Shown here piece after piece: positions 9,001 through 15,000 of a DNA stretch of 43,671 nt. The stretch's first letter is position 1. Every line of letters starts with the position of its first letter. The stretch lies in the IMG/VR virus record IMGVR_UViG_642791630_000021. The stretch is one strand, 5' to 3'. The stretch is from a virus. Lineage: Duplodnaviria > Heunggongvirae > Uroviricota > Caudoviricetes. A program made the position numbers.

Positions 9001-12000
9001 ATGAATTTTTCGAAACACAGAGCCGCAATGTAACCGACTGGATGCCGCTACCAGAACCGCCGCAGGAGGTGCGCCAATGATCTGGCCTGAAGCCTTTGCA
9101 ATTACAGGCGTTGCTATAGCTATTGATTTTTTAGTATATGTTATTTGTCGGTGGGGGTAAAAACGTTCGCCGGGATTCACACCAAAGGAGGGAATATGTC
9201 GGATGATATTTCACTGGCAATGGAAGGTGCGCTGGCTGTTATTGCTGTTGTGGGCGTTTACTGCCTGGTTGTGTTTTTGATGGATCGACTAGGGAACTGA
9301 ATTCATTACGATATGGGAATTCCCATATCGGGTAAAAACGGTTTGCGGTAAAGCGAGAGTTAAGTAGAATTGCTGCGGGTGCTTGAGGCTGTCTGCCTCG
9401 GGCATGCCACCGTAAGGTAGACAGAGAAAAGCCCCAGTTAACATTACGCGTCCTGCAAGACGCCTAACATTAATCTGAGGCCAATTTCATGCTAGACACA
9501 TGTAGGTTAGCCTCTTACGCGCCGAAAGGCAAGGAGAAGCAGGCTATGAAGCAGCAAAAGGCGATGTTAATCGCCCTGATCGTCATCTGTATCACCGTCA
9601 TAGTGACGGCACTGGTAACGAGGAAAGACCTCTGCGAGGTACGAATCCGAACCGGCCAGACGGAGGTCGCTGTCTTCACAGCTTACGAACCTGAGGAGTA
9701 AGAGACCCGGCGAGGGAGAAATCCCTCGCCACCTCTGATGAATCAGGCATCCTCAACGCACCCGCACTTAACCCGCTTCGGCGGGTTTTGTTTTTTCCTG
9801 GCATTCTGGTTTACAATTCGCACGCCAGCCTGAACAACTGGCACCTGCTGCGCCAGCAGAGACAACCGATGGCGCACGATACCAAATTATACAATTCTGA
9901 TGATTCTGCCGTCTTTGCCAGCAGGCGCGGACGGTGTTTTCACGCATTCAAATCTGACTGGTACCAGCATCCCCCATGCACTGAAGAACAGGCCGAATGG
10001 CTCATTCAGTGTTACCGCAGGCGCGGATGCGAGGTTAAAAAAGCCCTTAGCCTCGACTACCGTCACTGGATAATCTCCGTCAGGCTCCCTTACTCCGAAC
10101 GGCCACCGCGTCCGTCCCGCACATTCCAGCAACGGATCTGGAGGTAATGTGCGGGTATTACTTCGACCTGTTCTGGTACCGGAACTCGGTCTGGTTATCG
10201 TTAAGCCAGGCCGTGAATCAATGTCAGCATTCCATAACGGCAGAATACTGGTGGAGCCGGAACCAAAAAGCATGCGAGCTCTGCCGTCCGGGGTTGTACC
10301 TGCCGTTCACCAGCCGCTGGCGGAAGATAAATCACTACTGCCATTTTTCAGCGATGAGCGGGTGATCCGTGCTGCGGGTGGCGCTGGTGCACTGTCTGAC
10401 TGGTTATTACGTCACGTGAAATCCTGCCAGTGGCTACACGGTGATTATCATCATAGCGAAACCGTCATTCACCGTTACGGTACCGGCGCGATGGTGTTGT
10501 GCTGGCACTGCGACAACCAGCTGCGGGAGCAGACATCTGATTCACTGGATCAACTTGCTCAACAGAATCTGGCCGCCTGGATGATTGACATCATCCGTCA
10601 CGCAATGAATGGCGCACAGGAGCGTGAATTATCTCTGGCTGAATTATCCTGGTGGGCGGTCCGCAATCAGGTGGCGGACGCGCTACCGGAAGCGGTATTA
10701 CGTCGTTCGCTGGGGTTGCGTGCGGAAAAAATCCGCTCCGTATACCGTGAAAGCGACATCATACCGGGAGAACAGACCGCCACCAGCATACTGAAGCAGC
10801 GCACAAAAAATATTGCGCTACCGTCTCACACCCACCAGCAACAGAACCCACCACAGGAAAAGACGGTGGTCAGCATTGCCGTTGATCCGGAGTCTCCGGA
10901 ATCCTTCAGGAAACGACCTAAACGTCGCCGCTGGGTAAATGAGAAATACACACGCTGGGTAAAGACACAGCCGTGTGCGTGTTGTGGTAAGCCAGCGGAC
11001 GATCCTCATCATCTGATTGGTCATGGTCAGGGCGGAATGGGAACAAAATCCCACGATATTTTCACGCTACCGCTGTGTCGGGAGCATCACAACGAGCTTC
11101 ATGCGGATCCGCTGGCGTTCGAAGAAAAGCATGGTTCCCAGGTTGATTTAATTTTTCGTTTTCTTGATCACGCCTTTGCAACCGGCGTGCTCGGGTAAAA
11201 GAGGTTACTGATGCGTATAGAGTTTGTTTTGCTTTACCCGCCGACGGTGAACACCTACTGGCGACGTCGTGGCAGCACATATTTTGTATCAAAAGCCGGT
11301 GAGCGTTATCGCCGGGCTGTGGCGCTTATTGTTCGCCAGCAGCGGCTGAAATTAAGCCTGTCCGGAAGGCTGGCGATAAAGATTATTGCCGAGCCACCGG
11401 ATAAGCGCCGCCGTGACCTGGACAATATTCTGAAAGCGCCGCTGGGGTGTGGGCAGGCCGCTGTATAAGGATCTCATCGGTCGTACAAAAGCCGCGCTGG
11501 CAAAGAACCCGAAAAATGTGCTGCTTGCCGTGGTGTGGATGCAGGGGGAATTTGACTTTGACGGAACGCCAGCAAATCACACAGCCCGTTTTACAGAAGT
11601 AGTGGAACAATATCGTACGGACCTTGCAGATATGGTGGGACAGTGCGCTGGTGGTTCTGCTGACGGTGTTCCCTGGATATGTGGAGACACAACTTATTTC
11701 TGGAAGCAGAAGAGCGAATCCACTTACCAGACGGTGTACGGCAGTTACAAAAACAAAACGGAAAAGAATATTCACTTTGTGCCGTTCATGACCGATGAGA
11801 ACGGAGCAAATGTCCCGACGAACAAACCGGAAGAAGACCCGGATATTCCGGCATCAGGATATTACGGTGCGGCCTCCCGGACGTCGGCAAACTGGACGTC
11901 AGCAGACCGTGCGAGCCATTTCAGCTCATGGGCACGCAGGGGGATTATTTCTGACCGTCTTGCCTCAGCGATTCTTCTCCATGCAGGACGGACGGCTGAA

Positions 12001-15000
12001 CTGGTGGGTGGGGAACAGGTTGTGATGCCGCCGGATGAGAAGCCGTCACCGGACACACCATCAACACCGTCAACGGACGGGAAATCAGTGACAACGCTGC
12101 TTTATTACCGTGCAACAGAGTCAGGTGGTTTACTGAATCCGCAGGGATGGGGAGCTGAAGGAGGGCGTGCATTGGTAGTTGATGATGCAGGTGCTGCAGG
12201 AGGTAAGGCGCTGAGGTGGACCAAACAGACAGGAAGTTCCTCGTGGTTTATGCAGCATGATGCCGGTAATGGCGCAGACCTGCTGGAGAAGGGCGGGCTT
12301 ATCAGTTGTCGTTTTAAAGTTGATGGCACACTGACAGCTAATCAGTACGCACTGGCGCTGTACTGGCCGGTTTCTTCACTGCCTCAGGGTGTCACACTGG
12401 AAGGTAATGCCGGTCATAACCTGCTGGCGTCGTTTTACGTACAGAGCGATGCCACAGACCTTAATGTGATGTACCACAAGGGAAATGCTGGTCAGAACAC
12501 GAAGCTGGGGTCATTCGGCGCATTTGATAACGAATGGCATACGCTGGGCTTCCGTTTTGCCGGTAACAACAGTATTGAGGTGACGCCGGTCATTGATGGT
12601 AAGGACGGGACGCCGTTCATGCTGTCACAGTCACCGGTCGGCACGTTTACGGCAGACAAATTGCGCGTGACCGATATCACTAGCGGTGCGACATATCCGG
12701 TGCTGATTGAAAGTATAACAGTGGAAGTGAATAACCCGTAAGCAGGAAAAAAAGGCCGCCGGGGCAGGGAAAACAAGGAGCCAGAACCGGCGGCAAATGT
12801 CGTTATATCCAAAGCAAAACATGCAGGACACTTTTTTAACCAACAGGTATTAACGATGTCAACACCATATCAATAACCGGGAGGGATAATGAGATTTGTA
12901 CAGCTTATTTTATTGTATTTCTGCACGGTGGTGTGCACGTTATATCTGGTAAGTGGCGGGTATAAGGTTATCCGGAACTATATACGCAAAAAGATTGATG
13001 CCGCGGCGGCGGAAAAAATCAGCGCCAGCCAGTCAGCCGGAACAAAACCCGAAGAGCCTCTCATTTCGTAGCAACTTTCTTAACAACACCTTTCAACGAG
13101 AAAATCCCATGTCAGAAATAAAATCTCTGGTCACTGCTGAAGCAGTGAAGGACGTCCTGCGCTCTGAAGAAGTCAGAAGCGCACTGAAACAGCAACTCCG
13201 CCAGAATCTTGAGGCGCGTCTTGATGCTGAAGTGGATGCCATTCTGGATGAGCTGCTGGGGGGACCGGCTGCTCCTGAGCCTGAAGACGGCGCGGGTGAC
13301 AGTGCTGTTTCAGATGGCGTTGTGTCTCAGCCTGACGGTAGCAGTGAGCCTCAGCCTGGCGGCGAAATGATGATGTAACCATACGCAGGGGCTGTCGGTG
13401 TGAGCTGATGCCCCTCCTGTTGTTGTGAGCTTCCGGATTGCGGGAGACGGGGTATGTACCAGATGGAAAAAATCACAACGGGTGTGTCATACACCACGTC
13501 AGCGGTGGGGACGGGATACTGGTTACTGCAGCTGCTGGACAAAGTCTCTCCGTCCCAGTGGGTGGCGATAGGTGTGCTGGGGAGTCTGCTGTTTGGCCTG
13601 CTGACGTATCTGACTAACCTGTATTTCAAAATCAGAGAGGACCGTCGTAAGGCGGCGCGGGGAGAGTAAAGCGATGAAGAAAAAATACGAACTGGTTGTT
13701 AAAGGGATAAATAATTACCCGGATAAGATTACTGTTACTGTGGCACTGGAAATTGGTGGGTATCCGTCACTGTTGTTGCCAGATGTGGCGATTAGTCTTG
13801 ACCGTACTGAAGGTGCCACGCTGGAGTTTTACGAAGCTGAGGCGAAAAAGCAGGCGAAGCAGTTTTTCATGGATGTTGCTGCCGGGTTATGTGAAGGGGA
13901 TGGTCCGTTACCGGAAAAGCGTCCCGTAATTTTAGAGGCGCAGGATGTGTTGATAACCTACAGAGGAAAACTACCGGGAATAATTACGGGTTCTCTGAAG
14001 ACTCCACCGCTGGCCTGAAGACTTAACATATCCAGGGATTTGAAATCGATAAACCCTGATAAATATCCATGAACGCAAAAATCAGATACGGCCTGTCGGC
14101 TGCCGTTCTGGCGCTGATTGGTGCAGGGGCGTCTGCGCCTGAAATCCTCGACCAGTTTCTGGATGAAAAGGAAGGTAACCACACCACAGCATACCGTGAT
14201 GGTGCGGGTATCTGGACCATCTGCCGTGGAGCCACCCGGGTGGATGGTAAGCCTGTTATTCCTGGCATGAAGCTGTCGAAGGAAAAATGCGACCGGGTTA
14301 ACGCCATTGAGCGTGATAAGGCGCTGGCATGGGTGGAGAAAAACATCAGAGTGCCACTGACCGAACCCCAGAAAGCGGGGATTGCGTCATTCTGTCCGTA
14401 CAACATTGGCCCCGGTAAGTGTTTCCCGTCGACGTTTTACAGACGGATTAATGCAGGAGATCGAAAAGGTGCCTGCGAAGCTATTCGCTGGTGGATTAAG
14501 GACGGTGGCAGGGACTGCCGTATTCGCTCAAATAACTGTTACGGTCAGGTATCCCGTCGTGACCAGGAGAGCGCGCTGGCGTGCTGGGGAATCGACAGAT
14601 AAGCAGAATATTTTGCTGAAAAATGAGGTTTGCTTACATGGACGGATAACACGAAATCCTGCAAATTGGCAAAATGTAAGTGAATAAAGTCAAAGCAGTT
14701 GTTTAACACTCAGGCACCGTAATGATGCCTTTGTCATTTCTGCGCATCTCACGCGCATCTCACAACACAGAACCTTTCAGGATGACCCTTGAGGATACCG
14801 GTTTGGCTGTCGGTGCCTTTCTGTGGGCTGGATTCCTGTGAGACAAGGTTCATCACTAAAAGGAAATAACCGATGAATATGATGGCCGTGCCGTTTCACG
14901 GCAACTCTCTTTATGTAGTTAACCATAATGGCGAACCATACGTTCCCATGAAACCTGTCGTTGCGGGGATGGGGCTGGCCTGGCAATCACAGTTGGCTAA

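Follow-up and report, generated by a model that had tools for sequence, protein, structure and literature searches.

The question raised by this locus is what has become of the late-gene switch of a lambdoid prophage in which a truncated rusA gene runs directly into an esterase gene, nanS-p, that has lost its beginning. The window, which is the whole stretch of 43,671 nucleotides analysed here (IMG/VR record IMGVR_UViG_642791630_000021), differs by 4 bases from positions 1485505-1529175 of Escherichia coli O157:H7 TW14359 (NC_013008.1). It is an Sp6-type lambdoid prophage at the potC/potB site in O157:H7 of the TW14359/EC4115 group, and its 5′ end is the integrase gene adjoining potC; the equivalent element at the identical site in strain Sakai is annotated as 'prophage Sp6; lambda-like phage'. 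A first-pass annotation had read the locus as a deletion scar that removed the antiterminator Q. We consider it very probable that 2,678 bp, including the whole late-gene switch, were lost from one O157:H7 sublineage in a single event of illegitimate recombination or replication slippage, and that this event inactivated both flanking genes and left the late operon probably silent, but did not block excision.

The deletion junction

The window and its intact relatives are more than 99.9% identical across the first 11.4 kb, where positions 1-11445 show 2 mismatches to strain 272 (NZ_CP018239.1) and 6 to Sakai. BLAST pairs window 1-11445 with positions 1-11445 of the strain 272 locus, and window 11439-41747 with positions 14117-44425. 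Exactly 2,678 bp are missing from the window relative to strain 272 and to Sakai alike, as a clean gap with an equal offset. The following features lie at the junction.

11211-11468, plus strand: rusA pseudogene, 3′-truncated; 85 codons (78 of native RusA, then 7 of nanS-p read out of frame), followed by TAA
11439-11445, no strand: deletion junction; 7-bp microhomology CCGCTGG, in a single copy in the window
11434-12741, plus strand: nanS-p remnant, 5′-truncated; residues 213-645 of 645, with DUF1737, GQSN and most of SASA lost and DUF6645 complete

In the intact relatives, CCGCTGG stands at both ends of the 2,678-bp interval (11439-11445 and 14117-14123 of the strain 272 locus). Such a pattern, in which a short direct repeat flanks the lost interval and one copy of it is retained, is the hallmark of a microhomology-mediated deletion. 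The chance expectation of a junction microhomology of at least 7 bp is ~3.8e-4, and the 7-bp overlap thus fits slipped-strand or illegitimate recombination. In the proposed mechanism, the recombination would have taken place between the two repeats, one in rusA and the other in nanS-p, in the sublineage that comprises TW14359, EC4115, SS17, SS52 and their relatives. The scar that had been placed near 11440, with the esterase frame running from 11434 to 12741, is confirmed by these alignments, and the comparison with intact rusA-Q-cargo-nanS-p prophages that had been proposed as a check is what maps the missing interval.

Two readings would do away with the deletion altogether. An assembly artefact, in which paralogous prophage sequences had collapsed onto each other, might be imagined in O157 genomes, which hold many near-identical lambdoid prophages with up to 22 matching places per genome. 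The 7-bp repeat is, however, too short for an assembly collapse, and 27 complete genomes, sequenced in different laboratories and at different periods, share the junction (26 of them, assembled independently, with 100% identity, and the 27th nearly so), as do two IMG/VR contigs; an artefact is accordingly rejected as wildly improbable. It has also to be asked whether the window carries naturally short RusA and esterase variants, the intact form having arisen by insertion in other strains. Beyond the existence of the two open reading frames (ORFs), nothing favours this. Both ORFs break within Pfam domains, and the breaks match, to the base, the 7-bp repeat that flanks 2,678 bp in relatives that are more than 99.9% identical upstream. 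The esterase remnant has no start codon at its homology boundary, and the Prokaryotic Genome Annotation Pipeline (PGAP) marks both genes as partial pseudogenes. The alignments to strain 272 and Sakai, together with the Pfam matches, refute this second reading, to which we give next to no credence.

The missing interval

In the intact relatives the interval and its borders are annotated as RusA of 124 residues, an antitermination protein of 273 residues, a TerB pseudogene, DUF3927 and a SASA esterase of 645 residues. The deletion removed the following items, in this order.

Item 1: the last 46 rusA codons (RusA residues 79-124)
Item 2: a complete lambda-type Q gene of 273 residues
Item 3: a lambda-like PR′ promoter with its pause element, just downstream of Q
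Item 4: a tR′-like intrinsic terminator
Item 5: a terB pseudogene and a DUF3927 ORF
Item 6: an STnc100-family RNA
Item 7: a second strong intrinsic terminator
Item 8: the first 212 nanS-p codons, including the GQSN motif

The deleted Q matches Pfam Antiterm (E = 8e-49) and the lambda Q structure 7UBM (E = 1e-39), and it has an extra CxxC zinc-finger insert, which gives rise to a DnaJ-type CXXCXGXG match. Downstream of it, GGTAAATTTG and AACGATGGG align with the corresponding stretch downstream of lambda Q; we take GGTAAATTTG to be the PR′ -10 region and AACGATGGG to be the sigma-dependent pause-inducing element. About 50 nt beyond this stretch lies the first of the two strong intrinsic terminators in the interval, consisting of ACCCGTCGCCAGGCGGGT followed by a T-run (fold -29.9 kcal/mol, z = -3.5). 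The lost module is similar to the late switch of lambda (Q, PR′, qut and tR′) in that its Q is homologous to lambda Q and the downstream elements align. It differs in the size of Q, which has 273 residues with the zinc-finger insert as opposed to 207 residues in lambda, and in the cargo of terB pseudogene, DUF3927, STnc100 and nanS-p between tR′ and the lysis genes; the module as a whole is gone from the window.

Three further observations were made on the interval. The STnc100 match (RF02076, 101.6 bits) occupies positions 13175-13341 of the strain 272 locus, between the DUF3927 ORF and nanS-p, and was removed with the rest. A Chi sequence, GCTGGTGG, is located just downstream of the tR′-like terminator within the deleted interval (12539-12546 of the strain 272 locus). 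No tRNA genes, such as those upstream of stx in Shiga toxin phages, are present in the interval of the intact relative or in the window.

The rusA and nanS-p remnants

The rusA ORF ends in seven residues, GCGQAAV, which are nanS-p DNA read out of frame. Its match to Pfam RusA (PF05866) covers profile positions 3-89 of 124 and falls short of the full-length domain (~120 residues), while the intact allele of 124 residues matches positions 3-123. We presume that the catalytic residues of E. coli RusA are the aspartates D70, D72 and D91. On alignment to the structure 1Q8R (+1 offset), the equivalents of D70 and D72 (RDLDN) are retained, and the DD pair that aligns with D90/D91, residues 89-90 of the intact allele, lies past the breakpoint and is lost. 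The RusA encoded in the window would thus lack the segment with the third catalytic aspartate and probably hold only two of the three that the enzyme requires. RefSeq likewise describes the gene, by PGAP, as a partial pseudogene 'missing C-terminus'. A naturally short RusA, which would have spoken for an undisturbed locus, is not what is found, the 124-residue allele being intact in the relatives.

A TGA at 11431-11433 precedes the nanS-p frame, which is open from 11434; homology to the esterase begins at 11439/11440, which corresponds to R213 of the 645-residue protein. The frame had been described as having neither a start codon nor a ribosome-binding site, and this holds: no start is present at the homology boundary, and the earliest possible one, a GTG at 11449, has no convincing ribosome-binding site. 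Only profile positions 102-157 of SASA are matched, at 24.4 bits under a cut-off of 24.8, and no complete SASA domain is present. The GQSN motif at residues 85-88 of intact NanS-p, which we take to be SGNH block I with the serine nucleophile and hence expect to be catalytic, is deleted. DUF1737, residues 4-50 of the intact protein, is gone as well, and the C-terminal lectin-like domain DUF6645 is complete (profile 1-119 of 119, E = 3.5e-71). This domain layout of NanS-p agrees with the published one (PMC10462455), and DUF1737 has been assigned as a capsid-binding domain in phi24B (preprint, bioRxiv 10.64898/2026.04.10.717836). The PGAP/RefSeq note on nanS-p reads 'missing N-terminus', again a partial pseudogene.

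The two genes had also been regarded as fused. They are joined at the DNA level only, because the rusA and nanS-p frames differ by +1; rusA stops at 11468, 7 codons past the junction, which rules out an in-frame RusA-NanS fusion protein. With the two truncations, the strain has one rusA fewer and is without one of its several copies of the nanS-p esterase gene.

The late operon

The genes on which the fate of late transcription depends are those on either side of the scar.

10149-11198, plus strand: DUF968 gene (Pfam DUF968, E = 2.3e-75), intact, upstream of rusA in the early-right operon
12889-16063, plus strand: start of the orphaned late operon (ORF calls, PGAP names), without PR′, qut or Q upstream; in order, DUF1378, DUF826, holin (13454-13669), YdfR-like, lysozyme (14069-14602), an antirepressor-like ORF and an Rz-type lysis protein (15596-16063)

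Sakai, strain 272 and strain 144 each retain a gene for the antiterminator Q, located between the nin/rusA region and the lysis genes. In the window, a tblastn search with Sp6 Q returned no homologue (best E = 2.9), a PHROGs scan of the unnamed ORFs found no member of a Q family, the PGAP annotation names no antiterminator, and the PR′/pause motif has no match even at up to 3 mismatches. The Q-dependent late switch, comprising Q and PR′ with qut and tR′, is missing from the window, and no substitute for it is present there. The proposal that Q and its promoter region had been lost is borne out, since both lie between rusA and nanS-p in the intact relatives, and neither Q nor PR′ was found elsewhere in the window.

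After the deletion, the lysis, head and tail genes would be left without a promoter and an antiterminator of their own. A similar Q is present in one carrier genome (94% identity in the aligned segments). The late genes cannot, however, be rescued by a related Q that another resident prophage supplies, because the cis site, with PR′, the pause and Q loading, is gone too. Polymerase arriving from the early operon would transcribe ~1.3 kb of probably untranslated nanS-p RNA, in which Rho-dependent termination is likely; Rho polarity is expected here because the ~1.3-kb remnant has no credible start codon or ribosome-binding site. As judged from the gene arrangement, the late operon is likely to be silent. 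In this sublineage the Sp6-type prophage would be unable to run its own late programme, and a foreign related Q would be no help.

Distribution and direction of the change

Among 5,426 complete E. coli genomes, 27 have the junction, every one with an identity of 100% or close to it; TW14359, EC4115, SS17, SS52, JEONG-1266 and TR01 belong to these carriers. The intact interval, counted as present in a genome that holds at least 80% of it, occurs in up to 369 genomes, among them Sakai and the sorbitol-fermenting O157 strain 493/89 (99.8% identity). It is only in the short form that the two flanking genes are interrupted within their domains. For this reason, and because the intact arrangement is widespread, including 493/89 and Sakai, that arrangement is taken as ancestral and the short one as derived. 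In the phage collection searched, no record spans the junction; the phage matches begin at the nanS-p side with ~80% identity. The 27 carrier genomes can be recognised as a lineage by the 7-bp junction, which makes a clean marker.

Strain F690 (NZ_AP026080.1) offers a separate lesion, in which an IS1203 insertion splits Q in the equivalent prophage (locus coordinates 767-2901). It is an independent knockout of the equivalent late switch. As in the window, an Sp6-type Q is inactivated at the equivalent chromosomal locus, but the cause is an insertion, and PR′, tR′, rusA and nanS-p are all intact in F690. A related Q from another prophage could therefore still act on the F690 late promoter.

No published description of this particular deletion was found in a literature search that covered journals outside the subscription ones. 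The two truncated genes are already flagged as partial pseudogenes in RefSeq, the prophage is well studied and the variant is lineage-specific. The value of the finding is mainly one of bookkeeping; its mechanism and consequences are ordinary, and it raises no new biological question.

Rewiring, selection or decay

Several points weigh against a late operon silenced by one event. The tR′-like terminator and the second terminator were deleted too, which leaves the lysis genes contiguous with DUF968 and the rusA remnant. With both terminators gone and the early operon contiguous, read-through from upstream is conceivable, and transcriptional continuity with the early-right operon could give low-level expression that is independent of Q. 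A strong terminator at 9770-9787 also lies upstream of DUF968, rusA and Q in this RacR-type prophage. A single event is most simply assumed for all carriers, but its single origin would follow only from the identity of the junction sequence. The claim that the late genes cannot be switched on normally thus stands as far as the switch itself and its rescue in trans are concerned, and has to be softened for Q-independent read-through. Carried further, this argument would make the lysis and morphogenesis genes a rewired extension of the early-right operon, to be expressed without Q upon derepression. The loss of both strong terminators of the Q-to-nanS-p interval fits such a rewiring, as does the shared orientation of rusA, nanS-p and the lysis genes; between 11445 and the holin gene there are only weak terminator-like matches, all inside coding sequence, and no strong terminator. 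We nevertheless regard it as unlikely, because polymerase would still have to cross the ~1.3 kb of nanS-p remnant without a credible start or ribosome-binding site, where Rho polarity is expected, and would meet the terminator at 9770-9787 before reaching DUF968 and rusA, and because PGAP annotates no N-like antiterminator.

The deletion might instead have been positively selected as a disarming step, which would have removed the lysis trigger and stabilised a cargo of type III secretion system (T3SS) effector genes, nleL, espN and espK, and would then be something other than neutral decay. The effector genes are intact, the junction has reached 27 genomes from several countries, and Q was knocked out independently by IS1203 in F690. 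On the other hand, most Sp6-type prophages (up to 369 genomes) keep Q despite other defects, so that Q is evidently tolerated, and two independent lesions are no more than neutral decay and insertion-sequence activity in O157 would predict. Selection for disarming is in our view quite doubtful. We would put little faith in a version confined to the TW14359/EC4115 sublineage, in which a selected rewiring or disarming either stabilised the cargo or brought the lysis genes and a stand-alone lectin-like NanS-p fragment under early read-through. If true, the selected event would have removed the Q/PR′ lysis trigger together with the short PR′-tR′ transcript and the STnc100-family RNA, both of which may be regulatory. 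The preferred account remains a deletion that adds a further defect to an effector-carrying prophage that was defective before, that is, ordinary decay.

General state of the prophage

The head and tail genes had been called apparently intact, which does not hold. PGAP reports a frameshifted portal gene, tail gene I is a 94-codon stump (34469-34753), and the T3SS effector genes nleL (34875-37223) and espN stand in place of J and the fibre genes, a lesion common to Sakai and strain 272. Strain 272, which keeps Q, has an equal portal frameshift, a truncated I and no J. Its tape-measure gene carries a stop codon, whereas that of the window is intact. A 162-bp tandem repeat (23832-24373; 3.3 copies, 94% matches) is situated in the 3′ part of the portal gene. 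The window has 64 mismatches to strain 272, which cluster at ~23 kb, in the tandem-repeat region, and in a patch at ~18 kb; 42 of the 64 fall in the portal-repeat kilobase. A faster decay of the late genes after the deletion is not seen, the mismatches to strain 272 being clustered in these places.

The further claim, that the prophage is locked in, also fails. Excision is not blocked, because the window has both int and xis in intact form and excision is independent of Q. In Sakai, Sp6 was scored defective in portal, head, minor tail and host specificity, and it nevertheless excises spontaneously and is transferred at low frequency, with particles undetected from Sp6 lysogens (Asadulghani et al. 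2009, PMC2669165). The chance that the effector genes nleL, espN and espK spread as phage particles is already small, and it may drop with the deletion.

Sakai Sp6 (NC_002695.2, 1541611-1590033; ECs1501 onward) is like the window in its site next to potC, its gene order and its espX7/nleL and espN cargo. Unlike the window, it keeps ECs1523 (rusA), ECs1524 (Q), the TerB-like and DUF3927 ORFs and a full-length ECs1527, annotated as 9-O-acetyl-N-acetylneuraminic acid deacetylase. The cryptic lambdoid prophages of K-12, Rac, DLP12 and Qin, have been eroded by deletions and insertions, and they persist together with useful cargo. They have lost far more of the late region than the window, which differs from them in its nearly complete set of lysis, head and tail genes and in its intact int and xis.

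Gene layout and minor observations

The genes of the window are ordered as follows.

First part: int, xis, truncated exoVIII and the racR/ydaS/ydaT immunity region
Second part: O/P-type replication genes, nin-like ORFs, hok/sok, DUF968 and rusA
Third part: nanS-p, lysis genes, terminase, head genes, tail genes and the arc/ant module
Last part: T3SS effector genes nleL and espN, and an IS2 element

The Sp6 immunity region is of the RacR/YdaS/YdaT type. In the racR-ydaS intergenic region, positions 3553-3589 hold 4 of the 6 mismatches to Sakai within the first 11.4 kb and 1 of the 2 to strain 272, and these overlap a promoter-like site at 3583-3612. The DUF968 protein has an identical accession, WP_001265168.1, in TW14359 and strain 272.

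A hok/sok toxin-antitoxin locus occupies 9377-9791 (sok RF01794, 114 bits; hokD 9546-9701). At 9710-9791 there is an isrK-like match, sub-threshold with 27.7 bits against a gathering score of 50, and the strong terminator at 9770-9787 falls within it, immediately upstream of the orf-DUF968-rusA(-Q) block. IsrK of Salmonella Gifsy-1 governs a circuit that involves an antiterminator Q, and the match may be a clue to the route by which Q is reached when the phage is intact.

Inside the tail gene region lies a P22 immI-like module (32125-33780), which contains an Arc-family gene on the minus strand, a small Arc/Mnt-like ORF and an antirepressor Ant gene (32902-33780). The module also holds a match to the Rfam sar antisense RNA (RF00262, 66.7 bits) at 32834-32900 on the minus strand.

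The IS2 element at 41748-43079 adjoins remnants of gogB and nleB. It was considered as a lineage marker and rejected, as it is common to 298 complete genomes, including Sakai, EDL933, O55:H7 and O145:H28; strain 272, which does not carry it, is the exception, and the insertion is ancestral.

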